Positions 14,305 to 62,715 of a DNA stretch of 64,000 bases are shown one piece after another. A model generated the notes under the pieces. The model was not told the DNA's origin, made no database searches, and saw only the letters and a program-made list of their open reading frames with translations. Source of the DNA: a virus (lineage: Duplodnaviria > Heunggongvirae > Uroviricota > Caudoviricetes); IMG/VR virus record IMGVR_UViG_3300019757_000006; one strand, given 5' to 3'. Made by a program: the position numbers and the translations under genes. The first letter of the stretch is position 1, and each line of letters opens with the position of its first letter.

Positions 14305-15680
14305 TGAAAAAGTTTTTAGATTCAGAAGTGCTTACTTATGGAACTTATAAAGTAGTACAACAGTTACCAAATGCTCTTAGTGGGATGTCTCAGACTCAAA
14401 CTAAGATCATGCATGAGCTTCAAAAGAAACCAGATAAGAAGATAAAGACCGCTGAGGTTTTTACTCTTATTTATAATAATACGAAGTACAGACATGGTGA
14501 TGTATCAGCAAATACTACTACTAGTAATCTGGCTGCTCCATATAGTAATAATATTAATTTATTAAAGCCTAGTGGAACATTTGGATTTAGAAGTGCCAAG
14601 AAAGCATCTTCTGCTAGATATACTAATGTTATTTTTAGTAAGATGGGACAATCTATATTTAATAAAAAAGATATACCATTACTAGAAGAACAGATATTAG
14701 AAGAAACTGTAGTTGAACCACATTATTTATTACCTATTATTCCAGTTGGTTTAATTAATGGTATGGATGGTATTGGTATGGGATATTCTTGTAAAGTACA
14801 TCCTAGAAATCCTTTAGAGATAATTGATTTAATCATTAATATATTAAGTGGTAAAACTAAAGTAATTCCTAGTGTTCTTAACTTACATTACCCGTTCTTT
14901 GATGGAGTAATTGAAAATGGAGAAAATCCTAGACAATTTATTATTAAAGGTAAAGTTTCTAAACCTAAAAAGAATGTTGTAAAAATTACTCAAGTACCCG
15001 TTTCTTTAGATAGAGAAAAAATTATTGATAATTTAAATAAATTAATTGATAAAGATTTAATTAGATCGTTCGAAGAAGATTGTGTAAAAAACACATTTGA
15101 CTTTACTGTTAGAGTAACTCCAGAAGTATGGAATATGGATGAAGAAACTCTATTAGAATTATTCTCATTAAACTCTACTGTATCAGATAGTATTACTCTT
15201 ATTCATAGAGTTAATAATAAATATGAATTATTATTCTTTGATTCGGTTTCTGAGTATCTTGGTTTTTGGATTAAAGAAAGATTAGGTTTATATAAAGAAA
15301 GATTAGCTATTGAAATAATTGAATATGAATTTAGATTAATGAAAAACGAGGAACAACGTAGATTTATTGAATTAGAAAATAATGGGACTATAGTTGTTTC
15401 TAAAAAATCTAAAGTTGATATTTTAAAGCAAATTAAAGCTAATAATTTAAAAAATATTGCAGATGGTTCTTCGGAAACTGGATGGAATTATTTATTAAAT
15501 ATGCCTATTTATAATTTAAGTGCTGAAAAATTAAAAGAATTAGAAATCGAACATGCTAGATTAACTCAAGAGTTAATTGATTATAGAAAATTAAAGCCAA
15601 CGAGTGTTTGGTTAGAAGAATTAAAAAATCTTCATAAATTAGTATTAAAAGAATACGAATCGAAATTGGTTGTGGTATAA
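14304..15680 (+). CDS. type II DNA topoisomerase medium subunit (T4 gp52-like, GyrA/ParC-type cleavage domain)
   Basis: SSARYTNV active-site tyrosine context (AxRYTE in GyrA). Start overlaps the gp39-like stop (TAATG). Confidence 0.85.
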   Translation: MKKFLDSEVLTYGTYKVVQQLPNALSGMSQTQTKIMHELQKKPDKKIKTAEVFTLIYNNTKYRHGDVSANTTTSNLAAPYSNNINLLKPSGTFGFRSAKKASSARYTNVIFSKMGQSIFNKKDIPLLEEQILEETVVEPHYLLPIIPVGLINGMDGIGMGYSCKVHPRNPLEIIDLIINILSGKTKVIPSVLNLHYPFFDGVIENGENPRQFIIKGKVSKPKKNVVKITQVPVSLDREKIIDNLNKLIDKDLIRSFEEDCVKNTFDFTVRVTPEVWNMDEETLLELFSLNSTVSDSITLIHRVNNKYELLFFDSVSEYLGFWIKERLGLYKERLAIEIIEYEFRLMKNEEQRRFIELENNGTIVVSKKSKVDILKQIKANNLKNIADGSSETGWNYLLNMPIYNLSAEKLKELEIEHARLTQELIDYRKLKPTSVWLEELKNLHKLVLKEYESKLVVV

Positions 15681-15706
15681 TCCACAACCAATTTTCCTGT
15701 CGTTAT
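15669..15706 (+). terminator. stem-loop + TTTCCTGTCGTTA element on the topoisomerase stop codon
   Basis: ggttgtgg-tataat-ccacaacc hairpin; the topoisomerase stop TAA (15678-15680) sits in its loop. It is followed by aattttcctgtcgttattttt. Confidence 0.45.
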
Positions 15707-15740
15707 TTTTGGGTAATTTATATTATAACCACTCGGTTTA

Positions 15741-15797
15741 AAAACGTGATAGCTGGTCAACTATACTAAGCTATAGCTATCTTAAGCTAAGCTATTG
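15741..15797 (+). repeat. AGCTA-rich dispersed intergenic repeat, copy A
   Basis: aaaacgtgatagctggtcaactatactaagctatagctatcttaagctaagctattg. The reverse complement of copy C (41101..41163) matches it. Confidence 0.5.
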
Positions 15798-15807
15798 TAT
15801 AATAATA

Positions 15808-15870
15808 CTTTAGAATAAGTACATCAGAGTATAGATATATTATAATCAGATAAGATGATATAATTGAAAA
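15808..15870 (+). promoter_or_regulatory. conserved ~60-bp promoter-like block, copy 1
   Basis: ctttagaataagtacatcagagtatagatatattataatcagataagatgatataattgaaaa. Its 26-nt core agtatagatatattataatcagataa is identical at 34775..34800 and contains TATAAT-like hexamers. It lies ~160 bp upstream of gene 16027. Confidence 0.45.
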
Positions 15871-16026
15871 GTTATATTTTTTTATAGTCTATTTTTTGGC
15901 CCTGACGAGGGCATTATAAATACAATATTAAATATAAAAGGAGATCTTTTTTTATAGTTGTTAATTATTTTTTATAAATAATTAAACCGAGATTCGCGAT
16001 GAAAAAATTAAAAGGAGAGTCACACG

Positions 16027-16413
16027 ATGAATCATACCCCCGTATGTGCGGATAAAGAAAAAGTAAAGAAGCTTTTTTATTCCGTTTTAAAAGAGAAAAA
16101 ATGCTCTCATGAAGATTATACTCTTATTAAAAAATTAATACTAAATGAGGAACATAATGTTCTTTATTACAGAAGTGTAAATAATAATCCTTTTGGAAAA
16201 GGGATGTTGAAAGATTTAAGTATAAAAGAGGGAGAGGTATTTTATTTAAGAAAAAATGTTATTTTTGCTCAACATAAAACATTAGGATTAATTAAAATTT
16301 TAGGTATCAATACTAAAAGAAAAGATATCAAATTATATATAAAGGGTCAATTAGGTAACTTAATTATGGAAAGCACTACTCCAGTTTTAGTGCATAGTGC
16401 TAAGGTTGATTAA
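16027..16413 (+). CDS. hypothetical protein
   Basis: RBS aaaaggagagtcacacgATG. First gene after a 346-bp regulatory intergenic region. Confidence 0.5.
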   Translation: MNHTPVCADKEKVKKLFYSVLKEKKCSHEDYTLIKKLILNEEHNVLYYRSVNNNPFGKGMLKDLSIKEGEVFYLRKNVIFAQHKTLGLIKILGINTKRKDIKLYIKGQLGNLIMESTTPVLVHSAKVD

Positions 16414-21779: not shown

Positions 21780-22586
21780 ATGAAACCAGGTAAAAACGAT
21801 TTAGTAACTATTAATAGTAGTGGTGGTTTAGATAGTACTGTATTATTATATAAAGTACTTAAAACTACAAAAGCAGATGTTATCTTAATTAATTATAAGT
21901 ACGGTCAAAATCATGGTATTGAAATTGAAGTACAAAAAAAATTATATAGAGATATTAAAGAAGATTTTGGAGATAGAGTTCTAGGTAATATTACTATAGA
22001 TCTTGGTCCTGTATACAAAGCTTCTAAAGATGTATTTGATGATCTTAAAACTCTTAGAGAGTCTAAAGGTATTAAAGATAGTACTAATCATGAATTTTAT
22101 ACTCCAAGTAGAAACTTATTATTTATGAGTGCAGCTTCTGCACTCGGCGAATTAGTAAGTATTGCTCAAGGATATAAAAATCTTTATTTAGGAATTGGAG
22201 TTCATAAGCATTCGGAAGAAGCTTATGGAAAAGATGGGGAAAATGGTAGTACTCAATATTGGGATATTACTCCAGAATTCATTGGCCAGTTACAAAATGT
22301 TTTAAATTTAAATGATGTTGTAAATATTGAAATTTATGCTCCATATAAAAATAAGTTCAAGAAAAAGATAATCAAAGATATGGTAAAACATAAAGTTGAT
22401 TTTAAAAAAACTTGGACTTGCTATGATCCATTGTATGATGAAGTTCAACATGAGGTTATGGTTAAAACGTGTAAGAAATGTGAAGCTTGTGTTGAAAGAG
22501 AATTACAAGGAAAATTAGCTGGTGTTGAAGGCATTAATGATTACTATGTAACTCTTAGAAAAAACCAAAAGCATGCTATAGCATAA
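21780..22586 (+). CDS. queC: 7-cyano-7-deazaguanine (preQ0) synthase QueC-like PP-loop ATPase
   Basis: PP-loop SSGGLDST is present. NYKYGQNHG matches QueC (DYGQRH). PSRN matches PGRN. TWTCYDP and the C-terminal zinc motif CKKCEAC match QueC (TWSCY...CGRCDSC). Confidence 0.85.
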   Translation: MKPGKNDLVTINSSGGLDSTVLLYKVLKTTKADVILINYKYGQNHGIEIEVQKKLYRDIKEDFGDRVLGNITIDLGPVYKASKDVFDDLKTLRESKGIKDSTNHEFYTPSRNLLFMSAASALGELVSIAQGYKNLYLGIGVHKHSEEAYGKDGENGSTQYWDITPEFIGQLQNVLNLNDVVNIEIYAPYKNKFKKKIIKDMVKHKVDFKKTWTCYDPLYDEVQHEVMVKTCKKCEACVERELQGKLAGVEGINDYYVTLRKNQKHAIA

Positions 22587-22873: not shown

Positions 22874-22901
22874 TAGGAAGTTCCGAGGAACTTCAACCGC
22901 T

Positions 22902-25544: not shown

Positions 25545-26023
25545 TGACAACAATGCCTAGAATGGCCCATAATAGATACATTGAACCGGTAATAGACCAT
25601 CGAATTGTTGAAGAATTAAGAAGTGAAGATGTGAATAATAATATTAGATTTCATAATTTTCGACCATCTATAGATAGTGAATTATTAGAAGAGATTGGAT
25701 CGTTTGTTTATGAAATAAGCGGTAGTAGTATTAATATTAGTATTATGTTTAAGGATACTTCTAAATTTAATAAAACTTTACTTTCAGTTCCAGTAGCATC
25801 AGGAAATGATTTATTAGGTACTTTAGATTATTTAAATAATCTATTGATAATGAGAGATAATCCAGTTCCTTTAGAACCGGAGGTAAGCGTAGCGGAAATT
25901 TTAGCAAATTTGGATGCAAATTCAACTTCTAAAACTTCCATAGATGATCTAATTAACACTGACGTCCCAGAAGAAATTCAAACCGAATTATCTTTTGAGA
26001 ATGGTGGAAGATTTAACCAGTAG
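25544..26023 (+). CDS. hypothetical protein
   Basis: 159-aa ORF whose start overlaps the ClpB-like stop. Confidence 0.45.
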   Translation: MTTMPRMAHNRYIEPVIDHRIVEELRSEDVNNNIRFHNFRPSIDSELLEEIGSFVYEISGSSINISIMFKDTSKFNKTLLSVPVASGNDLLGTLDYLNNLLIMRDNPVPLEPEVSVAEILANLDANSTSKTSIDDLINTDVPEEIQTELSFENGGRFNQ

Positions 26024-26068
26024 CTAAAGATAGTTAGCTTAGTATAGTGAGCTAGCTACCAGCTAAAT
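26021..26068 (+). repeat. AGCTA-rich dispersed intergenic repeat, copy B
   Basis: tagctaaagatagttagcttagtatagtgagctagctaccagctaaat. It overlaps the stop codon of 25544..26023 and matches the reverse complement of copy D. Confidence 0.5.
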
Positions 26069-26101
26069 AAAAAAAATTAAATATAAAAAGGAAAGACCAA
26101 A

Positions 26102-27900: not shown

Positions 27901-27948
27901 ATCTATAATTAAGATGTAATAGATATTTTGAATGATAACTTATAAAAT

Positions 27949-27980
27949 GGGGAGTGAGTTTTCACTCCCCATTTTTTTTA
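27949..27980 (+). terminator. intrinsic terminator
   Basis: ggggagtga-gttt-tcactcccc stem-loop followed by attttttttatt. Confidence 0.7.
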
Positions 27981-28009
27981 TTCGTCACTAAAATTAAAAA
28001 AGGAAAAAT

Positions 28010-31553: not shown

Positions 31554-33059
31554 ATGAAATTAATTAGGTCAAAGCTTGCGGATAAACGAGAAAAGAAATT
31601 AACATATGACTATAATTTTATAGAAGAAAAGATACAGCTATTCTTGGAAAAATACCAAGTGGATAAAGAAATGGAAATATTTATCCAGGATCTAATTGAT
31701 AAAGAAATCGATCTCGATAAAGCATATATTAATATTACTGCTAAAAAAATTGATAAAGAGCCTCAGGTTCAGGTTGATTTTTTTAGTAGAATTAAAGTTA
31801 AGTTAGAAGAATTCATTGTCGATTGTATTAAAAAAGAAATTATTTTAGTACAAGCTAATGATGGAGAAGAGAGTGCTGCTATAACAGAAGAGATTTTAAT
31901 GAACACATTAGAAACTATTCCACTTACTATGTTTGAAGATGGTATTCAAAGAACTACTTTAGTTGCTTATCATTATTTCTTAAAAATTCTGCACCAGAAT
32001 ACAGAAGCTTATATGGAAAAAAATAAGATTAAAAAAATTAAAGGTATTAAAAATCCTAATGAAATCTTAGCAAATGAAATATATAATGTTATTGGTAAAG
32101 ATAAAGAAATGATTAGATTTACATTAACTATTAAAAACCTTATTGAACAATGGTTGGTAAAATATACTAGTAAAACTAAAATTGGCGATTTCTATTATGA
32201 TATATTAATGATTACTCCAGAGTATATAGTTGAGAAAATTCTAAAATATTTAATTATGGTTGCCATAAGAAATAAGAATCCTATGACTCTAAGAGCTATC
32301 TTTAGTTCATATATTACTTTAATTCATAAAAATTTATTTAGTTATTATGCTACGAATCTTAGTAAAGTAAAGGTTGGATATTTTAAGCAATTAGAAAATC
32401 TATTTACAGAGAATTTTGATTTACTTCATGATAAAGGCGAGAGTCGAGATCCAAAGAAATTCATTATGGATATTATGATAAAGACTTATCTAATGAAAAA
32501 TAAAAGACATCTAAAAGATGATATGGATTTTTTAAATGATGAATACTATCAACATTTCTTCGAGACTAATTATTTTGATGCTATGAGTTCATATAAATAT
32601 GAAAGTAATATGTCATTACTCGATCATATGTATTTTTATGAAACTGTATATAAATATACAAAGAATAGTTCGGATGCTCATGGAACTAGCAATGAATTAA
32701 ATAATAAATATATCGTTAATTCTGAATTCTTTAAGAAAAGTAATAAAAAGAAAAATCTTTTATATATCCAAGAAAAATTAGGAAAGAAACTATTTTCTCA
32801 TTTCTATAATATTTTTGGAGATAAAGAAAGTGTAATGCAAATTTTAGAAAGTATGTCAAAAGATATAATTAAGAAATTAAATTTTAATTATTATCTAGAT
32901 GAAGATTTAAAAAGTGTTGAATTTAACTTTAATGAATACTTAGATAATATCGATTATTTTATTGATAGAATCGAAAAAGTAATTCTAAGAGATAAAAGTA
33001 TTACTCCAAATATTAATGTAATGGACATTTTAAGTAATCCAAACGACAAGAAGGCTTAG
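31554..33059 (+). CDS. hypothetical protein
   Basis: 501-aa ORF. Last gene of the rightward block. Confidence 0.55.
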   Translation: MKLIRSKLADKREKKLTYDYNFIEEKIQLFLEKYQVDKEMEIFIQDLIDKEIDLDKAYINITAKKIDKEPQVQVDFFSRIKVKLEEFIVDCIKKEIILVQANDGEESAAITEEILMNTLETIPLTMFEDGIQRTTLVAYHYFLKILHQNTEAYMEKNKIKKIKGIKNPNEILANEIYNVIGKDKEMIRFTLTIKNLIEQWLVKYTSKTKIGDFYYDILMITPEYIVEKILKYLIMVAIRNKNPMTLRAIFSSYITLIHKNLFSYYATNLSKVKVGYFKQLENLFTENFDLLHDKGESRDPKKFIMDIMIKTYLMKNKRHLKDDMDFLNDEYYQHFFETNYFDAMSSYKYESNMSLLDHMYFYETVYKYTKNSSDAHGTSNELNNKYIVNSEFFKKSNKKKNLLYIQEKLGKKLFSHFYNIFGDKESVMQILESMSKDIIKKLNFNYYLDEDLKSVEFNFNEYLDNIDYFIDRIEKVILRDKSITPNINVMDILSNPNDKKA

Positions 33060-33096
33060 GAAAGAGATTAATCTCTTTCCGTATTCCTGTGCTTTA
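33059..33096. terminator. bidirectional terminator (perfect 22-bp palindrome) between convergent genes, followed by TATTCCTGTG
   Basis: ggaaagagattaatctctttcc lies between the stop of 31554..33059 (+) and the stop of 33098..33730 (-). The downstream gtattcctgtgcttt resembles the TTCCTGTCG motif family. Confidence 0.6.
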
Positions 33097-33097
33097 T

Positions 33098-33730
33098 TTA
33101 ACCTTGGTATATATTTTCGCCCATATTATCAAAATTATTTTCTTGTTGTTTAGTAGGATTATTATTTATATCTATCCCCATTTTTTTTAGGAATTGAGTT
33201 TCTCCCGATTGGGCCTGAACGGCCTTCTGTAAATTATTAGTCCCGCTAAAATCATATTGATTACCAGTTACTTCTGGTTCCTTCTTTACTAAGGTACTTG
33301 TTATAATATCCTCTTTTTTTAATGGTCCAGTTACTGGAGTCTGATCATTATTTATAGTACTAATATTTTCATCAGCTGGTTTTATATTAGATTCTATTTT
33401 TTTAGCCGGAGCCGTTCCAAATTTATCTGTATATTCTTTAGCTGCTGGATTATTTACATCAAATGATTTATTATTTAAATGTTTATTATAATCCTCGTGT
33501 GAGTTAATATTTAATGATTTCATATAATCTTGCGATTTGGTAGCATCCGTTATTGGAGTAACTACCTGCTGTGGTTCAACTTTAACTGGTTCCGAAACAT
33601 GTCCGGAATTTTTATTCATTAAATGTTGAGCTCCATAAGCACCTCCAGCTGTTCCAGCTAGACCTAAACCTACCTTAGTACCTAATCCCATTTCTTCTAA
33701 TAAAGAACTTTTATTTACTTCTAATTTCAT
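33098..33730 (-). CDS. hypothetical protein with Gly/Ala-rich N-terminal segment
   Basis: 210-aa ORF on the minus strand. GLGTKVGLGLAGTAGGAYGAQ is glycine-zipper-like. Confidence 0.5.
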   Translation of the reverse strand: MKLEVNKSSLLEEMGLGTKVGLGLAGTAGGAYGAQHLMNKNSGHVSEPVKVEPQQVVTPITDATKSQDYMKSLNINSHEDYNKHLNNKSFDVNNPAAKEYTDKFGTAPAKKIESNIKPADENISTINNDQTPVTGPLKKEDIITSTLVKKEPEVTGNQYDFSGTNNLQKAVQAQSGETQFLKKMGIDINNNPTKQQENNFDNMGENIYQG

Positions 33731-34105: not shown

Positions 34106-34124
34106 TCTTTTTCCTTTGATTTAT

Positions 34125-35710: not shown

Positions 35711-35712
35711 AA

Positions 35713-40353: not shown

Positions 40354-41048
40354 TGACACTAACTCAAAAAAATACTATGGAGAGTGCTTTTAAAAAGCTC
40401 TCTACCGTAATTCTTCACGAGATTAAGGTATTGCATTATGCCTCTCTTGGAAATGCTTTAAATGTTTATATTCAGACATTTGGAAAAATGGGTGGTACAT
40501 TACCGGAGTTAATGCCTATACTATGGCAAGTAAGAGAAGCTGATGAAAAGGGTTTATTAATGCCTAAAATCAGACAAGTACTTGCGGACTATATTGTAGT
40601 AGGAGATACTTCTCATGTTGGTACAAATGCTCCTATTAATACTCAAAAGAATGCTCCTGGTTTAAGAATAGTTGAAAAAGCTAAACCAGGACCAAATCAA
40701 GTAGTGGCTAATAAAAAAAAACAACAAGAAGTTGAATATGCTAAAACACATTTAGTTGCGGCTGAAGGGGTTGCTGTAAAATGGAAACCCGAAGCGATGT
40801 TAAGATTTTCAGATAAGTGGGCGGAAGATATACATAATGGAAATTATTGTAAACTTCCTCCTAATATGCAAGAAAATTTAAAAATTTTCTTTGCGTCTGG
40901 TGGGACAGAAGAGGAGTTTAATAGTTTCTTTACCTTTGGAGATAAAATTGTAGATTATAATTATATTAAAAAAGAGGTACTTACAGAGTATAATATTTTT
41001 CATAATATTAAAGGGATTGATAGAACTAAATATAAATTATACGAATAA
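40353..41048 (+). CDS. hypothetical protein
   Basis: 231-aa ORF translationally coupled to the SPFH gene (TAATG). Confidence 0.5.
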   Translation: MTLTQKNTMESAFKKLSTVILHEIKVLHYASLGNALNVYIQTFGKMGGTLPELMPILWQVREADEKGLLMPKIRQVLADYIVVGDTSHVGTNAPINTQKNAPGLRIVEKAKPGPNQVVANKKKQQEVEYAKTHLVAAEGVAVKWKPEAMLRFSDKWAEDIHNGNYCKLPPNMQENLKIFFASGGTEEEFNSFFTFGDKIVDYNYIKKEVLTEYNIFHNIKGIDRTKYKLYE

Positions 41049-41052
41049 AAAT

Positions 41053-41083
41053 TGGGGAAGATATCTTCCCCAATTTTTTTTAT
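41053..41083 (+). terminator. intrinsic terminator
   Basis: ttggggaag-atat-cttccccaa stem-loop plus tttttttta. Its flanks (aaaa..tttttttattcgtc) match those of the terminator at 27949. Confidence 0.7.
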
Positions 41084-41100
41084 TCGTCTCTTTTTTATTT

Positions 41101-41167: not shown

Positions 41168-41202
41168 TAACGACAGGAAGGCTGGATGGGAAGACCCATC
41201 CT
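41168..41202 (-). terminator. stem-loop + TTCCTGTCGTTA element on the stop codon of the GIY-YIG gene
   Basis: Minus-sense ggatgggtcttcccatcc hairpin, followed by agccttcctgtcgttaaaaaaac. The hairpin overlaps the stop of 41201..41728. Confidence 0.45.
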
Positions 41203-41728
41203 AATTTTCTATTTTATTAACTAAAGTATTTAATTTACCAGTTTTAGTATATTGAGTACCAAGTTGTTTAATTAAATCTACTTCGTATTTAAGTAAATCA
41301 TCTTTATTATCAAATTCTTCTATAATCGTAACCCAATTCATTTGATATTCTTTCCAATCATGAGGCATACTACTAGTATTTAATGATTTAGATAACTTCA
41401 TTTTATTCTCTAATTCCTTAAATGCCTTTACTTTCAGTATATTATTCTCAGACCCTTTAATAAAAGAACTGATATGTTGATTATGTCTATAACCAAAACC
41501 TCTACTAGCTTTTCCAACATAAAGTGGTTCGAATGCCAAACAATGTTCTTTATTCTTTAAAGTACTAATAGTTACTGGTTTTTGTAAAGGTTTAAAAGGA
41601 TTTATATAAATATAAATATAGAATTGATATTTCATATAATTAAAATCGTCTATCTTTGGGAATATTTTATATAATTGAAGAGTATCTTTGTTAGGACATA
41701 ACGCCCTTTTTAATGCTCCTTTATCCAT
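41201..41728 (-). CDS. GIY-YIG family endonuclease (Seg/I-TevI-like homing endonuclease candidate)
   Basis: YIYIYINPFKP...PLYVGKASRGFGYRHNQH matches the GIY-x10-YIG...R...H module. Confidence 0.65.
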   Translation of the reverse strand: MDKGALKRALCPNKDTLQLYKIFPKIDDFNYMKYQFYIYIYINPFKPLQKPVTISTLKNKEHCLAFEPLYVGKASRGFGYRHNQHISSFIKGSENNILKVKAFKELENKMKLSKSLNTSSMPHDWKEYQMNWVTIIEEFDNKDDLLKYEVDLIKQLGTQYTKTGKLNTLVNKIEN

Positions 41729-42093: not shown

Positions 42094-42120
42094 GAGACAG
42101 GAAAATCCCCGAAGGGATTA
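42094..42120 (-). terminator. stem-loop + TTTTCCTGTC element after the stop of 42125..42481
   Basis: Minus-sense aatccc-ttcg-gggatt hairpin, followed by ttcctgtctcc. Confidence 0.45.
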
Positions 42121-42124: not shown

Positions 42125-42481
42125 TTATTTTTTATCTTTATCAGTATCTTCGTCTTTACCTAATCCAGTTAATCTTCTAAATAGAATTGGTAATGATTTT
42201 TCAACTAGACCTAAAATAGGATAAGCGAATACAGATACAGCTCCAATTATTAGACCTTTATGTTGTTCTAAATTAGCTGGTATACTACTATCTACGATAG
42301 TTCCTAAAAAACCACCTATTGCAATGAGAATAAACATATGTTCCCAATCAAACTTAACTTCAGTTTCAGTTCCTTTTGCAAGTTCTTTTTCTTTAAGATG
42401 TATATAAATATAACTTACAAAACCACCAAAGATACTTAAGAGAAAGATTTTAATAGATTCCCAGTACTCAAGAGCCGTCAT
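42125..42481 (-). CDS. holin-like small membrane protein (three predicted TM helices, charged C-terminus)
   Basis: Hydrophobic segments IFLLSIFGGFVSYIYI, ILIAIGGFLGTIV and IIGAVSVFAYPILGLV. C-terminus KDEDTDKDKK. Two genes downstream of the M15 peptidase. Confidence 0.4.
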   Translation of the reverse strand: MTALEYWESIKIFLLSIFGGFVSYIYIHLKEKELAKGTETEVKFDWEHMFILIAIGGFLGTIVDSSIPANLEQHKGLIIGAVSVFAYPILGLVEKSLPILFRRLTGLGKDEDTDKDKK

Positions 42482-44331: not shown

Positions 44332-44901
44332 TTATAAAAATAAATCGTTTATTTCTTCTATAGTACTGGCAGGATTAAATGGTTGCATAAAAGGTAAAAC
44401 TTCTTCTAGTTTTACAAAGTTTCCGGTAATGATTAAATCATCCGCTTGCATTCTAAATGCTTCAATCTTATCAATTAATGATCTAATAGCTACTTGATAA
44501 GCTTCATGATTAGCAATAATTCGTTGATTCTCTTCTTCATCCCAAGAACCAGTTCCAGCTAATGCTCTATGGTACTTATCAATATATCTGTCTAATTGTA
44601 ACGGAGTATTCTTATATCCAAGAATCATATCGTTAACTTGATTTTGAGCAGCGTCGCATAAATACATTAAATCTTTTTTAGCTTCTTCCTGTTTATATTC
44701 TAACATAATTTCATTATATTTAATAACTATCATATCTACTGTTGGACATGTATCACAATTTGGAAGTACTTCTGGTACGATAATACTTCCATCTTCATTA
44801 TCATAAGTAATTATTTCTAAGTCAGGTACGAGTCTTCTAAAAGACTCTATTAATAAATCCTGATTTAATGCTTTGTCAAAAGGTAATATTGTATTTGCCA
44901 T
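44332..44901 (-). CDS. hypothetical protein
   Basis: 189-aa ORF whose start overlaps the previous stop. Confidence 0.5.
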   Translation of the reverse strand: MANTILPFDKALNQDLLIESFRRLVPDLEIITYDNEDGSIIVPEVLPNCDTCPTVDMIVIKYNEIMLEYKQEEAKKDLMYLCDAAQNQVNDMILGYKNTPLQLDRYIDKYHRALAGTGSWDEEENQRIIANHEAYQVAIRSLIDKIEAFRMQADDLIITGNFVKLEEVLPFMQPFNPASTIEEINDLFL

Positions 44902-56437: not shown

Positions 56438-56472
56438 TATTACACTCCTTAATTTTAGGTAATTTATTTGGA

Positions 56473-56509
56473 ATAGCTAATAGCTAGCTCACTATAGCCA
56501 GCTATTTAG
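56473..56509 (-). repeat. AGCTA-rich dispersed repeat, copy D (in the 68-bp region upstream of the giant fibre gene)
   Basis: aatagctaatagctagctcactatagccagctatttag. Its reverse complement matches copy B. It overlaps the stop of 56506..58983. Confidence 0.5.
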
Positions 56510-58983
56510 TGTTTAATTGTTAATTGTATATCATCTACATTAAAATGAAAGAAAGGTGGACAAAAATCTAAAAGAGTATTAATGTCGGCGTTCGCATCAT
56601 TTTTAATATTATAATAAATGGTATCCGCATCATTGACAACGAACATACTAGGGGATAGTACTTCAATATTTTTAATAAATGATGTACTTACAGTTGTTTG
56701 TTTGTATTTTTCATATATAAAATTTTCCAATTCCGATTCGAAATATTCTATTTTAAAGCCAATCTTTTGTTTGAAAAATGTAACAATATCTAATTTTATA
56801 CTTAGCTCTAAATCCTGAATACTGTCAAAACTATTCTCAAGAATAAAGTTTTCTTTATCTATATATACATCTAAAATAACATCTAATTTAGGATTACTCT
56901 TATTATAATTATTATTTATTTTAAATAGATAATCTTGATATTGTGGTGCAATATCTACCGTATTAAAGAACGATTGGGATACTCTTGTATTATAAGCAAT
57001 CTTATCTTTTGCATCATTAACCGCAAAGAAACTATCCAATGTACTAAATAATTCTTCCCAGTTGCTTTGAGTAAAATATTCTTTTTCTATATAAGGTAGT
57101 CTAAGTAAATGAACTATCTCATCTTTAGTAAATGGATCTAAAATTGCATCTACTGGTACTAATAAATCTCTTAACTCATTATCTAAATATTCTAAAGTAA
57201 TATTACTTGTATCGATAGCCAGATCGGCTGCCCCATCTACATGTTCGAAATATTTATATATAATTTGCTTAGGAATTAATTGATAATAACTATCATACGC
57301 GCTATAGTATTGAATAATTTCATTATATTCAAAATCTTGAACTGATAAAGTTAATTCAGTAACCTCTTCTTTAATAATACAATAAGCATCTGTAAACATA
57401 GTATTTACTTCCCAAGTAAAATTATTCCCAAAATCTAATTGAAAATCAAAATTCTTAGTACTTACTTTATATATTTTATCAGAAGCTGCCCCACTAGTAA
57501 TAGTAAAATAAGATTTCTGTCTAATAAAATCATATTTAATATCTAAATTAATTTGATTATTAAAAGCTACATCTTTAAGAGATACCATATCCTGAGCAAG
57601 CTTAATTGAAATACTTGGATTAACTATATAAGCTTCTGTTTCATTATTACTTAAAAATTTATAATAAAATGGAGATACAAAAGTTTTTCCGGCATAATCT
57701 ACTTCTGGATAAAAAGGATTTTCTGCTATATGAGTTTCTGTTTGATTTAAAGAAACTGTATCAATAAGGGTATTATTTTTATCTTTTAAAGCATCGAAAA
57801 TAAATAAAAATGATCTAGCATCTAAAAATTTAGCATCCACATATGGAATACTATCATTAATTTGGAAATACTTTTCAAAATCATTTACACTCGTAAGACT
57901 ATTTCGATAAGATAATTTATTAAAAATATTTTGTCTTATCTCTTCAATACTTTGGATATTATTTCCACCAGTTCCACCAATAACAGATACTCCATTAAGA
58001 CTACTTTTAAGTAGTCTAGTTTCCCCAGTATAGGTAACAGTTTCTGTATTTATATCCTGCAATAAAAATTGCATATTACTTAGATTTCCAGTTTCTCCAA
58101 GGGTAGTAACAATTTCAAGAATAATTTCATTATTAGCAGCTAGATACATTCCTGTTCTACCATCTCCAGTTTCAAAAGTAATACTATTACTATAAATCTG
58201 TAAGAATAAATCTAGATCATAAGCAGAACTACCAAATTTATAATATTTAGTACCAAATTTAGGATAACCTTTTATTCCTTCTATCTCATCAGTGGTTAAG
58301 GTATCGATCGAATCTAAGTTAGCTGGTTCAGATGATGAATTAAGCCAAGCATTAGTTGATACTAATCCTTTATAATCATGAATACTTTGCGAGAAAGAAA
58401 ACGTTTCCCCTATATTATAATTAGGAACTATAATCTTTTTTAATTCCCTTTTCTGTTGAAGAACTCCAGTATAATTTACTAAATAAATATAAGAACCTTC
58501 ATTAACTGGATCAGGAGCTCTTGTAATACTTAATTCCGTTTTATTTACGGAACTATAAGCAAAAGCTTGAACTTTACTAGCTGACATTGTAATTTGAATT
58601 CTTTCTGGAATCATGTAATCAATTCCCGAACTATCGTTAAATAAAGTATTCTTTTCAATATTAAATGTTTGGTATCTTATATTATCGAATGATAATTCTG
58701 GTACAATAAAACTTATATTAAAAGTAGATGGTTTTGCTAATTGTATTTCTGATTTATATATAGTACTATGAAATAATAATGAATTAAAATCTTGAGCCAA
58801 TCCTGGATTCATTTCTCTAAACATTTTACTATAAAATTGTTGAACATCGAATTTGATATTAGTAAGGTAATTAGTAAGTATTCCTAATGCTCCAGATTTT
58901 AATAAAATGGGATTAGTAATATTTAAATTACTTTGTATTAATTCTTCAAATTCGGCTTGCGTTACTTCGAACGTTTTACTCAT
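56506..58983 (-). CDS. large structural protein (baseplate-wedge-like by position)
   Basis: 825-aa ORF immediately upstream (in transcription order) of the fibre genes. No enzymatic motifs. Function inferred from context only. Confidence 0.45.
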   Translation of the reverse strand: MSKTFEVTQAEFEELIQSNLNITNPILLKSGALGILTNYLTNIKFDVQQFYSKMFREMNPGLAQDFNSLLFHSTIYKSEIQLAKPSTFNISFIVPELSFDNIRYQTFNIEKNTLFNDSSGIDYMIPERIQITMSASKVQAFAYSSVNKTELSITRAPDPVNEGSYIYLVNYTGVLQQKRELKKIIVPNYNIGETFSFSQSIHDYKGLVSTNAWLNSSSEPANLDSIDTLTTDEIEGIKGYPKFGTKYYKFGSSAYDLDLFLQIYSNSITFETGDGRTGMYLAANNEIILEIVTTLGETGNLSNMQFLLQDINTETVTYTGETRLLKSSLNGVSVIGGTGGNNIQSIEEIRQNIFNKLSYRNSLTSVNDFEKYFQINDSIPYVDAKFLDARSFLFIFDALKDKNNTLIDTVSLNQTETHIAENPFYPEVDYAGKTFVSPFYYKFLSNNETEAYIVNPSISIKLAQDMVSLKDVAFNNQINLDIKYDFIRQKSYFTITSGAASDKIYKVSTKNFDFQLDFGNNFTWEVNTMFTDAYCIIKEEVTELTLSVQDFEYNEIIQYYSAYDSYYQLIPKQIIYKYFEHVDGAADLAIDTSNITLEYLDNELRDLLVPVDAILDPFTKDEIVHLLRLPYIEKEYFTQSNWEELFSTLDSFFAVNDAKDKIAYNTRVSQSFFNTVDIAPQYQDYLFKINNNYNKSNPKLDVILDVYIDKENFILENSFDSIQDLELSIKLDIVTFFKQKIGFKIEYFESELENFIYEKYKQTTVSTSFIKNIEVLSPSMFVVNDADTIYYNIKNDANADINTLLDFCPPFFHFNVDDIQLTIKH

Positions 58984-59977: not shown

Positions 59978-60026
59978 GCGTAGTTTTAACTACGACAGGA
60001 ATATCTCCTTCCTACTGGAAGGAGAT
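59978..60026 (-). terminator. double stem-loop + TTCCTGTCGTAG element on the stop of 60026..60988
   Basis: Minus-sense atctccttcc-agta-ggaaggagat hairpin, then attcctgtcgtagttaaaactacg. The second part is a small palindrome, cgtagttttaactacg. Confidence 0.45.
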
Positions 60027-60988
60027 TATATATGAGATTCTGGTAAATCTTTTCTAAATGTTCTATTTATTTTATCCATATTTTTTAATATATCGGTACT
60101 TCTATTTTGTAGTAAACCATTAATATCAGTATTCTTAATATCTAAACTTCTTATTAAATTTAGATTATCTTTTGGTAAACAAGCACCACCAACTCCAGAT
60201 TGACCATCAGATGAAAATATTAATTCCTCTTGAGATGGTAATGGAAGGAGTCCAAGTAATTCATTTAATTTTCTAGGATCGGAATCAAATAATTCCGGTA
60301 AAGAGGCATTAAATAAATATTGATACATAGCTAAGGTATTTCTATAGTACTTAAATTCCATAGCTTCCATTTCAGTACAGCTAGTTTCTATTACAAAATC
60401 AAATGATAACATTCTATCCATAAAGAATTGGAACTCTTCTATTACTTGAATATTTCCACCTACTATATTCGGCTTCGTTTTGAATTCTTCAGTAGCATTT
60501 CTAGCATTTAAAAATTCAGGCCAGTATAATAAATTTAATTCTTCTGTATCACATAAATTACTTACTTCACTTGGAAGACAAGTACTCTTTATAGTAACGA
60601 TACCTTTAAAATTATTATCTATTAAGAAATTTAAATTTTCAGTAATACCAGATAAAGTTTCGACGATAGATTGTTCGTGATTAGTAGGAACAGTGATAAC
60701 TACTATAGTACAAGTTAATAAATCTTCTTGATTATCTTGATATCGTTTTTCTTTACTATAAATTACCGTTCTTTTTTTAGCACAGTCTCTTAAATTATTA
60801 TAGATAGCTTGATTAACTACTCCAAAACCTATTAATCCTAATCTTGGTCTATCGTCCGACCATCCTAAATCTGGTGTTGATTGGTAACCATCTAAATTTA
60901 ATATTTTATCCATCTCAAGTAATTCTTCTGGTGTTGGTAATTCTTCTATTTTATATATTGTTTCTGAGTCAACATAATTAGTTTCCAT
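60026..60988 (-). CDS. UDP-glucose/GDP-mannose dehydrogenase family protein, C-terminally truncated
   Basis: N-terminal Rossmann motif GLIGFGVVNQA. PEFLNARNA matches the family EFLREG motif. GVGGACLPKD matches the catalytic-Cys motif GGSCFPKD. Only ~45 aa follow the Cys, so the C-terminal UDP-binding domain is absent. Confidence 0.6.
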   Translation of the reverse strand: METNYVDSETIYKIEELPTPEELLEMDKILNLDGYQSTPDLGWSDDRPRLGLIGFGVVNQAIYNNLRDCAKKRTVIYSKEKRYQDNQEDLLTCTIVVITVPTNHEQSIVETLSGITENLNFLIDNNFKGIVTIKSTCLPSEVSNLCDTEELNLLYWPEFLNARNATEEFKTKPNIVGGNIQVIEEFQFFMDRMLSFDFVIETSCTEMEAMEFKYYRNTLAMYQYLFNASLPELFDSDPRKLNELLGLLPLPSQEELIFSSDGQSGVGGACLPKDNLNLIRSLDIKNTDINGLLQNRSTDILKNMDKINRTFRKDLPESHI

Positions 60989-61005: not shown

Positions 61006-61034
61006 ATTTAACGACAGTGATTTAAATCACTGTC
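61006..61034 (-). terminator. stem-loop + TGTCGTTAA element containing the stop of the small ORF 61022..61216
   Basis: Minus-sense gacagtga-tttaaa-tcactgtc hairpin; the stop codon sits in its loop. It is followed by gttaaattaacaaaggatatttaaATG. Confidence 0.45.
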
Positions 61035-61216
61035 ACGTTTACCCATTTCGGGTTGGTTATTCTACCACTTGTTAAACTCATATTCATATAACATTGAATT
61101 ATATTTATATGTTCTAACCAGTACCAATAACCATCTATTTTTTTAGGGAGAGTACAATAAGTTCGTACGATTCTTTTCTCCCCTAATTCAGGCTTCTTAG
61201 AATATATCCTAAACAT
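61022..61216 (-). CDS. small hypothetical protein
   Basis: 64-aa ORF bracketed by repeat copy F upstream and a hairpin at its stop. Confidence 0.3.
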   Translation of the reverse strand: MFRIYSKKPELGEKRIVRTYCTLPKKIDGYWYWLEHINIIQCYMNMSLTSGRITNPKWVNVTVI

Positions 61217-61232
61217 TACAGTCCTTTTCTTA

Positions 61233-61277
61233 AATAGCTAAGGAACTATACTAAGCTAAAAGCTATTCGTAGCTATC
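61233..61277 (-). repeat. AGCTA-rich dispersed repeat, copy F
   Basis: aatagctaaggaactatactaagctaaaagctattcgtagctatcg. It shares ctatactaagcta with copy A. Confidence 0.4.
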
Positions 61278-61355
61278 GAGTTTCCTACTTAGCGTTCAAC
61301 CTTGCTATTGGGCTATTAATTCATACTCCAACTTGAGTAGGTCTTAATGCATCCA

Positions 61356-62561
61356 TTATAATCCTTTACATAATAATATTTTAATATACGTTATTAAACT
61401 AACCATAACAATCTTTTTATATCGATAATCAAGCTGAGTACTTAGTTCACCATTTTGTTCAAAGATAGCTTTCGTGATACCTGCAACTAATTCTTTCGCT
61501 TTCTGAAAACTCTCTTCTTTTCTAGCAGAGTTAATTTTATTAGCAAGTACCTCAATATTTAAAGCACAAATCTCTTCTTCTGATTTAGGTTTAATTCCAC
61601 TAATAATTAATTCTATAAAATATTTTAAATCTTCCTCATTCTCATCATTATCTAACCAGTTATCTATTTTAGAAATTACCGCATCAGAAATAAAGAATTT
61701 TTTATAAAGGAATTCTTTGGGGATTGGTTTTTGAAGTACTTTTCTTTTTAGCACAGCATTCTTAGAAACTTTATCAGCAACTCTTTCTACAATACCAGAG
61801 AAGTGTTCATTTCTTTCTACCATATCAGAACCACTATCAAATGAATCTTTTTGTAAAGAACCAACCGCTTCTTTTTTACCTTCTTTATAAGATCTATAAT
61901 AAGCCTCTGCAATACCTTTAAGTAATTGATTATATCTACTTCTAAGAGTACTAATAATTCTTTTTAAACCACCATATACATCCATAGGATTAGCGGCAAT
62001 CTCAGCTGGATATTTAGCTTCTAATGCTGGTACTGATAATTTAAGAATATAACCAAATGGAGTTCCATGTTTTTTAAATGTATGATTACCTTGTAATTCA
62101 TAATTAATAACATATCTAGCAATATCGGGATTACATACTTTTGGAAAGAATCTCATTTTATAATAATTCCAGATACGAACTGAAATAAGCGTTAATGAGT
62201 ATTGTCTCAACTCTGGATCATCTTGATCTAATCCAATAAGATACCCTAACATTAATGTTAAGTAATAAATATCATCATATACGGAATAATCTTTTAGATG
62301 AAATTGTTTCATCTCTTCTTTTAATTCTCTTTCATTTAGCCCAAACAATTTTAACATAAGAGTTGGTAATTTTTTTGGGTATAAAAAGTAATCGCAAAAT
62401 GAATCATGTTTCATACTATCTTGCATTAATTTATGAGTACCCATTTGTAAATAATGTTTTAAAGTAGTCATTGCCAATTTATCATTTTTAAATTTATCTA
62501 GTACTGCTATCATTCTAGGTGATATATCTTTTCTATTTAGTACTGCTTTTGGTGGAGTCAT
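61356..62561 (-). CDS. hypothetical protein
   Basis: 401-aa ORF. Upstream, in mRNA sense, lie ctatataaaaag, the RBS aaagga, then ATG. Confidence 0.5.
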   Translation of the reverse strand: MTPPKAVLNRKDISPRMIAVLDKFKNDKLAMTTLKHYLQMGTHKLMQDSMKHDSFCDYFLYPKKLPTLMLKLFGLNERELKEEMKQFHLKDYSVYDDIYYLTLMLGYLIGLDQDDPELRQYSLTLISVRIWNYYKMRFFPKVCNPDIARYVINYELQGNHTFKKHGTPFGYILKLSVPALEAKYPAEIAANPMDVYGGLKRIISTLRSRYNQLLKGIAEAYYRSYKEGKKEAVGSLQKDSFDSGSDMVERNEHFSGIVERVADKVSKNAVLKRKVLQKPIPKEFLYKKFFISDAVISKIDNWLDNDENEEDLKYFIELIISGIKPKSEEEICALNIEVLANKINSARKEESFQKAKELVAGITKAIFEQNGELSTQLDYRYKKIVMVSLITYIKILLCKGL

Positions 62562-62606
62562 ATTTTTTCCTTTATAATAACTTTTTATATAGTCTATAAT
62601 ATCTAT

Positions 62607-62670
62607 TATAGCTAAGTATAGATCTATAGTTTGCTATATTTAGTTAGCTAGCTATAGTGAGCTAGTTCTT
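62607..62670 (-). repeat. AGCTA-rich dispersed repeat, copy E
   Basis: tatagctaagtatagatctatagtttgctatatttagttagctagctatagtgagctag. It shares gctatagtgagctagc with the reverse complement of copy D. Confidence 0.5.
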
Positions 62671-62686
62671 AGTTTTTCTCTTAATT

Positions 62687-62715
62687 TAATGACAGGAAAA
62701 TCCCCGAAGGGATTT
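62687..62715 (-). terminator. stem-loop + TTTTCCTGTCATTAA element after the stop of 62720..63991
   Basis: Minus-sense aaatccc-ttcg-gggattt hairpin, followed by tcctgtcattaa. The hairpin is nearly identical to the one at 42094..42120. Confidence 0.45.

Follow-up and report, generated by a model that had tools for sequence, protein, structure and literature searches.

Several genes in the 64,000-nt stretch of phage DNA that we analyzed (here called the window) end in a hairpin followed by a short recurring sequence, and the question is what kind of signal this arrangement represents. The window comes from a 224.7-kb contig of an uncultured jumbo phage. A first-pass annotation had listed seven sites of shared architecture; all seven were present, and the signal was stronger than first reported.

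Hairpins and boxes at gene ends in the window

The exact sequence TTCCTGTC (here, the box) was found five times in the window against an expected 1.27, and none of 100 dinucleotide shuffles reached five. All five copies (sites 1, 3, 4, 5, and 7) were oriented with the upstream gene and stood directly 3' of a 6- to 14-bp GC-containing hairpin, which either started no more than ∼5 nt from the stop codon or contained it. Two additional copies of the box were degenerate.

Site 1 (15662..15705, plus strand) has a 14-bp hairpin at 15662-15695 whose loop, TATAAT, holds the TAA stop (15678-15680) of the topoisomerase II A-subunit gene (14304..15680); its box at 15694-15701 is followed by GTTATTTTT. 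At site 2 (33059..33096, plus strand), gene 31554..33059 ends in TAG, and the G of that stop codon opens a 9-bp hairpin (33059-33080; loop TTAA); a variant box, TTCCTGTG, at 33084-33091 is followed by CTTTATTTA. The site 2 tail TTCCTGTGCTTTA also follows a capsid-gene hairpin in the distant relative L313. Read on the minus strand (33040..33080), this hairpin leads into TAAGCC-TTCTTGTC-GTTT, with a box (TAAGCCTTCTTGTCGTT) at 33052-33045; in this reading the element lies 17 nt past the stop of the convergent gene 33098..33730, and its box is antisense within the final codons of gene 31554..33059. Since the hairpin has a box on both strands, the site 2 element is bidirectional.

The remaining sites are on the minus strand. 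Site 3 (41168..41201) belongs to gene 41201..41728, which comes last in the minus-strand structural block; a 7-bp hairpin (41201-41184; loop TCTT) begins on the G of its TAG stop and is followed by the spacer AGCC, the box (41179-41172), and GTTAAAAAAA. The site 4 hairpin (42119-42104, aatcccTTCGgggatt; element 42094..42119) begins 5 nt past the stop of gene 42125..42481 and runs directly into the box (42103-42096), with a late-type promoter-like motif, AAGAACTAACTAAAACTTATAAAA, 23 nt further on. Site 5 (59979..60026) opens with a 10-bp hairpin (60026-60003) whose first base is the final A of the stop codon (TAA) of gene 60026..60988, followed by a single A as spacer and the box (60001-59994); a second small hairpin, cgtagttaaaactacg, follows at 59994-59979, and then the same late-type motif. 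Site 6 (61006..61036) is a degenerate member in which the TAA stop (61024-61022) of a 64-amino-acid ORF (61022..61216) sits in the loop of hairpin 61036-61011, the box-like CACTGTCGT is part of the 3' arm, and the next gene's ribosome-binding site and ATG lie directly 3'. Finally, the site 7 hairpin (62715-62698, aaatcccTTCGgggattt; element 62687..62715) begins 4 nt past the stop of an RCC1-like gene (62720..63991); its box (62698-62691) and the following ATTAAATTAA are upstream of the promoter region of a capsid-like gene (61356..62561).

Five of the eight hairpins in the window overlap or contain a stop codon, and two begin 4 to 5 nt after one. The first-pass annotation had placed the hairpins 0 to 6 nt from the stop and had put a TAA in the loop at two sites. 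Within the window this description was accurate: hairpins begin on the last stop base at 33059, 41201, and 60026, the gap is 4 to 5 nt at 42119 and 62715, and both loop stops were found. As an exact rule, placement on the stop codon did not survive comparison across the family, where the distance from stop to hairpin ranged from about -14 to +39 nt. The hairpins at 42094 and 62687, described earlier as nearly identical, are in fact two identical aaatcccTTCGgggattt hairpins.

The element in related phages

Comparison with relatives, which the first-pass annotation had called for, showed the same hairpin and box architecture in ∼15 related metagenomic phage contigs, down to ∼40% capsid-protein identity. 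These phages appear to be large and lytic, and the portions inspected contained no visible integrase or repressor. Protein homology between the family and any isolated phage was not detectable.

To count the box, we used 323.9 kb of sequence (5.1% intergenic) made up of the window and of loci chosen solely by protein homology, independently of the motif. In this census set, 26 of 37 copies of TTCYTGTC were intergenic; 25 of these 26 were preceded by a hairpin, and 24 of the 25 were called sense to the upstream gene, in line with the orientation proposed earlier. Three further hairpin-preceded copies overlapped convergent gene ends, and eight copies inside genes had no hairpin. An earlier 275-kb set, which overlaps the census set and included two loci retrieved by the motif, was scored for the TCYTGTC core. 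A comparable hairpin was found upstream of 7.4% of intergenic positions in that set, and binomial tests gave P values of ∼3e-33 (association with a hairpin), 8e-27 (intergenic position), and 1.5e-8 (sense orientation), all somewhat inflated, since related phages share orthologous sites that do not count as independent. Inside genes, the sense strand showed no depletion of the box (3 observed versus 1.9 expected), in a test of little power. The box goes with a hairpin before it, an intergenic location, and sense orientation.

Across the family we counted 46 distinct instances with 36 different inner stems. Their DNA consensus is a hairpin, 0 to 7 nt, TTCYTGTC, N-T-W-R, and then an A/T-only stretch; as RNA, it reads as a hairpin of any sequence (6 to 17 bp, with a loop usually of 4 nt), 0 to 7 nt, UUCYUGUC, N-U-W-R, and ∼4 to 5 A/U-only positions. 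The C, G, and C positions of the box were invariant, and A or T occupied 131 of 132 alignment cells at positions +12 to +15 (72% A/T genome-wide). Spacing between stem and box ranged from -6 to +7 nt across the family. The earlier view that the tail is too conserved for a generic intrinsic terminator was borne out. The tail itself had been given as (A/T)TTCCTGTCGTTA; TTCYTGTC, the short T-W-R, and the A/T-only stretch are conserved, but the full string is not, GTTA being one of several continuations. Likewise, it is true that no T-run follows the hairpins, but in many copies 2 to 5 Ts at the stem base continue into the box, and there are graded forms between T-run and box (TTTTTTCTTGTA in L301 and L306, TTTTTTGTC in L313, and TTTTCCTGTG-TTTTTAATTCGTC in L315).

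The box was conserved while the hairpins turned over. At three orthologous positions the box was kept and the hairpin replaced: after topoisomerase II-A (window versus L049), upstream of the capsid-like gene (site 7 and L296, L298, and L300), and after a UDPG-dehydrogenase-like gene (site 5 and the same three relatives). The box persisted to ∼40% capsid identity, where neighboring noncoding DNA could not be aligned. Close relatives showed compensatory G-C to A-T changes (L307 versus L308 and L309; L296 7141-7160 versus L298 6926-6955), which we counted as support for selection on the hairpin structure as well as on the box. Tetraloops were UUCG in seven cases and GAAA in seven, with the complement of either never found, and the hairpins contained 15 G-U pairs; on this basis the structure probably acts at the RNA level, on the sense strand. 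Three phages had bidirectional builds where genes converge (window 33040-33096, L302 15425-15480, and L313 5360/5390), and the one in L302 is a perfect palindrome, AAAACAAGACAGGAA-hairpin-TTCCTGTCTTGTTTT.

The elements are placed at the boundaries of transcription units. Roughly 60% of copies had a promoter-like motif 13 to 50 nt further on, as read by eye from the alignment with no scripted count; these motifs were AAGAACTAA..TTATAAAA, GAACAAAGATATA, and GTATAGATAT.TTATAAT. Several gene blocks ended with the element as their sole candidate terminator. Among gene-end hairpins in the family loci, at least 19 had the box and 2 to 3 had a T-run, so canonical hairpin and T-run terminators are rare in these phages. 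Two are in the window, both on the plus strand. The first (27944..27990; 14-bp hairpin, T8, then ATTCGTC) closes a unit that starts from an early-type promoter-like motif at 15829. The second (41047..41092; hairpin, T8, ATTCGTC), symmetric enough to serve both strands, closes a unit that starts from an early-type promoter-like motif at 34776; in minus-strand terms, it is found ∼100 nt downstream of site 3. At least six copies of the element lie directly before the ribosome-binding site of the next gene (window 61006, L048, L049, L296 11233, L298 11437, and L302 18320).

Resemblance to known signals

The nearest precedents are the terminator motif of phiKZ-like jumbo phages and the class II signals of T7 RNA polymerase, and the element belongs to neither. 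In phiKZ, 61 experimentally mapped terminators have a stem-loop and a conserved TTAT-containing tail, with the motif 5'-BCCYCCCCHWWDGGGRRGGBYTTATKYYGT-3' (PMC10914365), and 201phi2-1 has a similar terminator motif A (PMC11512511). These are also jumbo phages with a stem-loop and a conserved, nonhomopolymeric tail at most mapped ends, whereas our sites are known from sequence alone; in both groups some sites are bidirectional and many are in short intergenic spaces (PMC10914365, PMC11512511). By our own comparison, TTCCTGTCGT fits YTTATKYYGT at 8 of 10 positions, which may be chance. In phiKZ, however, the hairpin sequence is conserved and the tail is T-rich, and standard software therefore classes its sites as intrinsic terminators; in the present family the hairpin is free to vary, and TTCYTGTC is the invariant part. 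Further, multisubunit polymerases are known in phiKZ, but a motif scan and Pfam/PHROGs searches of ∼275 kb of family sequence, which took in ∼1/3 of the 224.7-kb source genome, revealed no RNA polymerase gene or catalytic motif.

T7 class II signals (ATCTGTT) are likewise short, conserved sequences that stop polymerase in one orientation without a U-run hairpin mechanism. They share the core (C)TGT with the box and act with a weak A/U-rich hybrid a few nucleotides downstream. A class II signal may stand beside a class I hairpin, as in rrnB T1 (bioRxiv 10.1101/2021.01.11.426313), but needs none, whereas a hairpin is almost always present here; only 4 to 5 of 8 positions agree with ATCTGTT, and the downstream stretch here is A/T mixed instead of a U-run. 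A motif scan and Pfam detected no T7-like polymerase motif in the family sequence sampled.

Bacterial intrinsic (Rho-independent) terminators share the GC-containing hairpin right 3' of the gene, bidirectional versions at convergent genes, and upstream A-runs pairing with Ts at the stem base. The box occupies the U-tract position, and intermediate forms exist; in contrast to those terminators, there is no U-run of 5 or more, and the tract has an invariant C, G, and C. The true T-run terminators of the same genome differ from the box elements in closing a different promoter class.

A candidate terminator and its alternatives

The near-invariant TTCCTGTC box after a variable hairpin, at many gene ends, is most likely a kind of terminator specific to this family. 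We lean, with somewhat better than even confidence, toward the hairpin and TTCCTGTC being the main transcript-end signal of the family: a leaky, sequence-specific, intrinsic-type terminator in which a conserved pyrimidine-rich box would replace the U-run. The hairpin would fold in the nascent RNA, and either the transcribing RNA polymerase or an accessory factor on this polymerase would recognize the sequence of the box, as RNA or as nontemplate DNA. Polymerase would then pause and be released within or just past the box, where the A/U-rich stretch would provide a weak hybrid; because the box itself is not a weak RNA:DNA hybrid, the classical mechanism would not apply as such. Copies directly before the next ribosome-binding site within operons imply partial read-through, so these elements may let some polymerases pass and act as attenuators that set gene dosage. 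Since units with early-type promoters end at ordinary hairpin and T-run terminators, the box type may belong to separate middle or late machinery, either a phage polymerase or a phage-modified host polymerase.

The main rival, which we consider unlikely, is RNA processing or stabilization: a sequence-specific endoribonuclease of phage or host would cut the polycistronic transcript in or next to UUCYUGUC, the hairpin would halt 3' exonuclease trimming and shield the upstream mRNA, and the downstream mRNA would begin just 5' of its own ribosome-binding site. The copies that require read-through under termination would suit a processing site equally well, as they lie 3 to 36 nt before the next ribosome-binding site or start codon, too close for a promoter to fit in between. 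Moreover, the variable stem-to-box spacing, not easily tolerated by a rigid hairpin-plus-tract mechanism, suits independent modules of cut site and protective hairpin, as do hairpins of any sequence with often extra-stable UUCG or GAAA loops, and a PIN-PhoH protein is encoded near such sites in relatives (L296 7777..9198; L298 7596..9023). In T7 early RNA, RNase III sites are intergenic hairpins in a polycistronic transcript, and the upstream mRNA keeps a protective 3' stem. Those sites also lie between phage genes, but the enzyme cuts inside the stem of a long, irregular duplex, and a conserved single-stranded box is lacking; the stems here are short and perfectly paired, and what is conserved lies beyond them. 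The box matches no nuclease consensus known to us, which we counted against processing. Nor does processing require the promoter-like motifs that follow many copies or explain the graded forms toward T-run terminators, and the two-strand builds at convergent ends are the only visible stop for polymerases entering opposing genes antisense. Downstream promoter-like motifs, bidirectional builds, and the scarcity of other terminators thus appear to fit a terminator better than a pure endonuclease site, although each of the three mechanisms proposed earlier retains some probability.

It is rather improbable that the box is instead the site of a phage regulator, either a DNA-binding protein blocking elongation by orientation or an RNA-binding protein switching read-through at weak hairpins during infection. 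Mycobacteriophage stoperators are 13-mer asymmetric repressor sites that halt elongation, with orientation strikingly correlated with transcription (PMC9283540), and the box is similarly asymmetric, in short intergenic spaces, and oriented with transcription. It is conserved as strongly as the promoter-like motifs of the family, and a single-stranded conserved part beside a hairpin of any sequence suits an RNA-binding protein. Stoperators, however, act as DNA occupied by the immunity repressor, without a hairpin, and have operator copies at promoters; here an apparently selected RNA hairpin accompanies nearly every intergenic copy, the box is absent from promoter regions as an operator, and the examined parts of these seemingly lytic phages yielded no repressor or candidate binding protein. 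An RNA-binding accessory factor would in any case be a version of the terminator reading and not really a rival.

Translation-coupled attenuation, proposed in the first-pass annotation, in which a ribosome at the stop codon would keep the hairpin unfolded and make termination depend on upstream translation, draws on the overlap of window hairpins with stops, but we consider it very unlikely. The family-wide distances and the minus-strand reading of site 2 do not indicate such coupling, because compact genomes, here 5% intergenic, give stop proximity for any terminator, and coupling leaves the conserved box unexplained. Least probable of all is that these are ordinary host-type intrinsic terminators or a dispersed repeat, with the shared tail due to common descent or chance and not to function. 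The aaatcccTTCGgggattt hairpin and box, found twice in the window and once in L020, could reflect copying, and the Ts running from many stems into the box also speak in its favor. This reading is largely refuted by the comparative data, namely one box on 36 different stems and its persistence amid unalignable noncoding DNA; a U-tract role would not require invariant C, G, and C, and shuffled sequence never gave the count of boxes seen in the window.

Gene content and relatives of the window

The window is AT-rich (~28% GC) and densely packed with genes. Plus-strand gene blocks span 100 to 33059 and 34922 to 41048; minus-strand blocks span 33098 to 34607 and 41201 to 63991. Its capsid-like protein (61356..62561, minus strand) has an identical counterpart on ENA contig ERZ27248185 k141_235969 (224,699 bp). 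The genome codes for a family B polymerase fragment, both topoisomerase II subunits, an Mre11-like phosphoesterase, a Rad50/SMC-like ATPase, and a ClpB-like ATPase; Pfam, PHROG, and PDB gave no match for nearly all structural proteins. It also encodes GTP cyclohydrolase I, thymidylate synthase, DHFR, and, by synteny with the related loci L049, L051, and L053, a QueC-like protein (genes at 2747-3520, 4260-5264, 5273-5773, and 21780-22586). Phages that substitute 7-deazaguanine derivatives for the guanine of their DNA typically have these genes, so the DNA of this phage may be modified.

Neither a DNA search nor protein queries in tblastn (capsid-like protein, polymerase B fragment) detected a related phage isolate, and a search for sequence to the left of the window gave a 9-kb contig only. 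The family is known from metagenomes only, and its members are contigs of 200 to 290 kb. NCBI assembly GCA_029935855.1, which looks like a bin of phage contigs and not a cellular genome, holds two jumbo-phage contigs of the family (L296 and L302 in our comparison): JAPOGU010000008.1 is 223 kb long with a capsid 88% identical to that of the window, and JAPOGU010000006.1 is 290 kb long with a capsid 40% identical. Among the matches listed in 14-mer pattern scans of IMG/VR, nearly all were rejected as chance, and L273 was the only true relative.

A hairpin and a conserved box at gene ends

Many gene ends and block ends in the family carry hairpins with stems of 6 to 17 bp, at least 3 G-C pairs, and predicted energies of -8 to -38 kcal/mol, followed by a box, TTCYTGTC, whose most frequent form is TTCCTGTC. 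The first-pass annotation had expected this box to exceed its compositional frequency after stop codons. In the window as a whole, TTCCTGTC occurs five times against 1.27 expected, a number reached in 0 of 100 dinucleotide shuffles, and all five copies are sense to the local genes and directly 3' of a stop-codon hairpin. The same annotation had assigned one architecture to at least seven sites. Of the seven listed, five carry the exact box, and the other two only variants, TTCCTGTG at 33084-33091 and a box-like CACTGTCGT built into the stem at 61011-61036. Its further observations, namely, a stop codon inside the hairpin loop at two sites, a near-identical hairpin pair (the tetraloop hairpin aaatcccTTCGgggattt, present twice), and the absence of a T-run after the box, were all reproduced on the window sequence. 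It had overlooked that the hairpin at 33059-33080, between convergent genes, carries the box on both sides, since its minus strand continues TAAGCC-TTCTTGTC-GTT. Both-strand builds of this kind were found at convergent ends in three phages (window, 33040-33096; L302, 15425-15480, a perfect 56-nt palindrome; L313, 5360/5390).

For the comparison, loci of relatives were retrieved by protein homology only (topoisomerase II-A and capsid-like protein, 40 to 88% identity), and their genes were called with a simple ORF rule. The window and these loci formed an unbiased census set of 323.9 kb, 5.1% of it intergenic; L020, L046 to L048, and L273, found via the motif or neighboring motifs, were left out. 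TTCYTGTC was intergenic in 26 of its 37 copies in this set. A hairpin of at least 6 bp preceded 25 of the 26 intergenic copies, and 24 were called sense to the upstream gene. Three more hairpin-preceded copies overlap convergent-gene ends, and all eight copies lacking a hairpin lie within genes. As background, a comparable hairpin precedes only 7.4% of intergenic positions. Binomial P values were calculated on an earlier, overlapping 275-kb set that includes two motif-retrieved loci (L020 and L273); they were ∼3e-33 for a preceding hairpin, 8e-27 for a position between genes, and 1.5e-8 for sense orientation, and are upper bounds on significance because sites that are orthologous among related phages do not count as independent. 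With one small-ORF misclassification taken into account, ∼30 of the 31 intergenic copies in the 275-kb set were sense.

Family-wide, we counted 46 distinct instances, which use 36 different inner stems. The box read TTCCTGTC in 29 instances, TTCCTGTG in 8, TTCTTGTC in 4, and single other variants in the remaining 5. A position count over 33 instances gave near-invariant T(-1), T(0), C(1), Y(2), T(3), G(4), T(5), and C(6), followed by T at +8 and T or A at +9; positions +12 to +15 were A/T only in 131 of 132 cells. The 58% relative L301 uses TTCTTGTC throughout, and in the most distant clade (41 to 43% capsid identity) the capsid-gene hairpin is followed by TTCCTGTT, TTCCTGTG, or TTTCTGTC.

The comparison with related phages that the first-pass annotation had proposed showed the box kept and the hairpin replaced at three orthologous positions: after topoisomerase II-A (window versus L049), and both upstream of the capsid-like gene and after the UDPG-dehydrogenase-like gene (window, L296, L298, and L300). 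Among close relatives, stems differ by compensatory G-C to A-T changes (L307 versus L308/L309; L296 versus L298). Loops were UUCG in seven cases and GAAA in seven, with the complement of either found in none; stems contain fifteen G-U pairs, and element orientation tracks the gene strand even within short opposed blocks. These features argue for a structure that forms in the sense RNA.

Two further kinds of hairpin were seen. A second small hairpin (cgtagttaaaactacg, ctgtcgtagttaaaacgacag, or cgtagttttactacg) begins within or right after the box in the ...CCTGTCGTAG subclass (window, 59994-59979, minus strand; L046, 3820-3840; L296, ∼9889-9903). Other sense-oriented intergenic hairpins have neither box nor T-run, e.g., gtaggccgaagcctac and acggttactatatagtaaccgt; they lie at 22877-22894, 39403-39418, and 26678-26711 on the plus strand and at 48658-48637 on the minus strand.

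Promoter-like motifs and T-run terminators near the elements

By our reading of the alignment, which was not a scripted count, ∼60% of the elements are followed after 13 to 50 nt by a promoter-like motif. Such motifs were defined by conservation and position only, and those conserved in the family are AAGAACTAA..(C/T)TTATAAAA, GAACAAAGATATA, and GTATAGATAT.TTATAAT with a conserved CTTTAAAATAAG upstream. Several elements stand last among the signals of their gene block. In at least six cases the next ribosome-binding site follows directly; these copies, if terminators, must be leaky.

Canonical terminators are rare. Among gene-end hairpins, the box follows at least 19 and a T-run follows 2 to 3, and a consensus terminator scan of the window between 26 and 45 kb gave strong matches at two T-run sites only (27944-27990 and 41047-41092, both plus strand), each then followed by ATTCGTC. 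These two terminators close units begun at early-type promoter-like motifs at 15829 and 34776, and L301 shows a mirror-image arrangement. Graded forms between T-run and box also exist (TTTTTTCTTGTA, TTTTTTGTC, and TTTTCCTGTG-TTTTTAATTCGTC). Both window T-run terminators share the tail TTTTTTTTATTCGTC; the similar TTTTTAATTCGTC stands after a box-type site in L315, and GTCTCTTTTTTTATTTTT stands after the L301 T-run terminator.

An early-type promoter-like motif of ∼45 bp, CTTTAAAATAAGTA-N7-AGTATAGATAT(A/C/T)TTATAAT, is followed ∼10 nt on by a short hairpin and T-run, which looks like a short leader or attenuator (window, 15805-15895 and 34750-34835; L049, ∼11800-11880; L051, 11399-11506; L053, 11399-11502; L273, ∼1090-1180). 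The motif is kept among relatives with only 50% protein identity and has no recognizable -35 hexamer. A GTDB genome scan with the early-promoter motif gave a single match, in a 54% GC Magnetococcales contig, that we rejected as chance. Two structural-block genes are preceded by 29 identical nucleotides of a late-type promoter-like motif, AAAAAAAGAACTAACTAAAACTTATAAAA (42086-42064 and 59957-59935, minus strand), with a core, TATAAAA, reminiscent of the T4 late promoter TATAAATA. The third class, GAACAAAGATATA, precedes gene 44332..44901 (44304, minus strand) and recurs in L295, L046, L300, and L302.

Known systems and candidate mechanisms

Termination signals are far less understood than promoters, above all for phage polymerases. 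Like canonical intrinsic terminators, the box elements have a GC-rich hairpin at the 3' end of the transcription unit, but the tail right after the stem is TTCYTGTC-N-T-W-R instead of ∼5 to 9 U. T7 class II signals have the consensus ATCTGTT (bioRxiv 10.1101/2021.01.11.426313) and have the general idea and a TGT core in common with the box; only this TGT and the usually preceding C coincide, and they work without a hairpin, whereas 25 of the 26 intergenic copies here have one that is kept by compensatory change. Closest to the box elements is the conserved terminator motif of phiKZ-like jumbo phages. In phiKZ, ONT-cappable-seq mapped 61 terminator sites with a stem-loop and a TTAT-containing tail (PMC10914365), and 201phi2-1 has a similar motif (PMC11512511). 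The phiKZ stem sequence is conserved (CCYCCCC...GGGRRGG) before a T-rich tail; here, 36 unrelated inner stems precede TTCYTGTC. The phiKZ tail, YTTATKYYGT, was derived from mapped 3' ends and differs from ours, which is defined by sequence, with 8 of 10 positions compatible, perhaps by chance. The TTAT..GT part of the tail of the window T-run terminators also resembles it.

Other known elements fit less well. Stoperators are intergenic, repressor-bound DNA sites oriented with transcription (PMC9283540), and the box is likewise an asymmetric intergenic site with this orientation; unlike the box elements, they have no hairpin, no box copy overlaps the promoter-like motifs, and no repressor was found in the parts examined. 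Lambda nut and HK022 put sites have a conserved stem or loop, recognized by N or by the polymerase, downstream of a promoter, whereas here stems and loops vary freely (29 loop types) and the elements stand where genes end, before promoters. Searches with Rfam 15 gave 0 matches at gathering thresholds and, at E ≤ 1, none overlapping a site except a weak RsmZ-like match next to the site near 41201, and we rejected hammerhead or other ribozymes, tRNA-like elements, and any Rfam family as the identity. A dispersed REP/MITE-like repeat was rejected because only the aaatcccttcggggattt hairpin recurs (three copies) and the remaining hairpins are unrelated. Pairing of TTCC with a downstream Shine-Dalgarno sequence was discarded given convergent-end copies without a downstream gene. 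An upstream promoter element was set aside since the spacing, often 22 to 24 nt, ranges from 13 to 50 and promoter-less copies exist. Judged by its sequence features, the element is terminator-like yet outside every described class.

We lean toward a leaky intrinsic-type terminator in which the sequence-specific box would substitute for the U-run. The basis for this reading is a selected RNA hairpin with an invariant box, sense-specific at unit boundaries and bidirectional at convergence. Two geometries are conceivable. Under the classical rule, release would occur 7 to 9 nt after the stem. As the last stem bases are usually the two box Ts, the median 3' end would then lie just past the box. 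Alternatively, the box could act like a T7 class II signal, with release in the A/T-only stretch 5 to 9 nt further on and 3'-end protection as the main role of the hairpin. The invariant T-G step of the box would also match the consensus elemental pause of bacterial polymerases, which has a pyrimidine/G step. The stem-to-box spacing varies from -6 to +7 nt, which argues against a rigid single mechanism. This variable spacing and the copies just before ribosome-binding sites would also suit cleavage and stabilization, in which box and hairpin act in RNA processing and not in termination, an explanation that we consider unlikely.

A broader proposal, which we advance tentatively, is that UUCYUGUC with its A/U-rich follower may be a new class of sequence-specific termination signal, read by an unrecognized phage polymerase or by a phage factor that reprograms the host polymerase, and serving middle and late genes family-wide beside the T-run terminators of an early machinery. 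If so, one phage would use two terminator "languages," one for each of two transcription systems. Pfam and PHROGs searches of ∼47 proteins found no polymerase and no Pfam RNA_pol match, and PDB sequence searches for one found nothing. The motifs DxDGD, GDK..HG.KG, and T7 A/B/C were absent from the ∼275 kb of family sequence scanned, which takes in about one-third of the source genome. The 2,483-amino-acid ORF of the structural block (48986-56437, minus strand), which has no database match, was rejected as a virion polymerase: the protein is coiled-coil-like, and its lone DFDLD is not conserved in relatives. It is repetitive, rich in L, N, E, I, and T, and ∼48% identical to 2,485-amino-acid homologues in L296 and L298, and is probably a fiber or tape-measure-like protein.

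An invariant short box that replaces the U-run across a family of 200- to 290-kb phages would be a directly testable handle on sequence-specific termination and, in phages with almost no annotated proteins, would point to a termination factor or a polymerase. T7 and phiKZ-type elements have already supplied terminators for synthetic biology, and compact, host-orthogonal terminators are a possible use here as well. For annotation, the box is a practical key: in the family's metagenomic contigs it marks the boundaries of transcription units and the direction of genes.

Blocks of AGCTA/TAGCT words (consensus, about ATAGCTGG-N-CACTATA(C/G)TAAGCTA) occupy intergenic stretches of the window at 15735-15810, 26006-26081, 41087-41172, 56459-56520, 61220-61291, and 62630-62680, several of them just downstream of box-type sites. 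They were rejected as a component of the element, being oriented independently of gene strand and, in distant relatives (L051, L053, L300, and L307 to L310), replaced by AACTATTAATAGTTA-type palindrome blocks at equivalent places. This clade-wise replacement suggests binding sites of a DNA-binding protein that co-evolves with each clade. Four tandem copies of such a block, each of ∼120 nt, are present in L301 (17849-18460). A sub-threshold Rfam match to the PrrB/RsmZ sRNA family (41046-41174, minus strand; 28.5 bits versus a gathering threshold of 44; E = 0.011) begins just after the site near 41201, crosses an AGCTA block, and reaches the T-run terminator. The match may be due to chance, or the block and terminator may form a small RNA gene.
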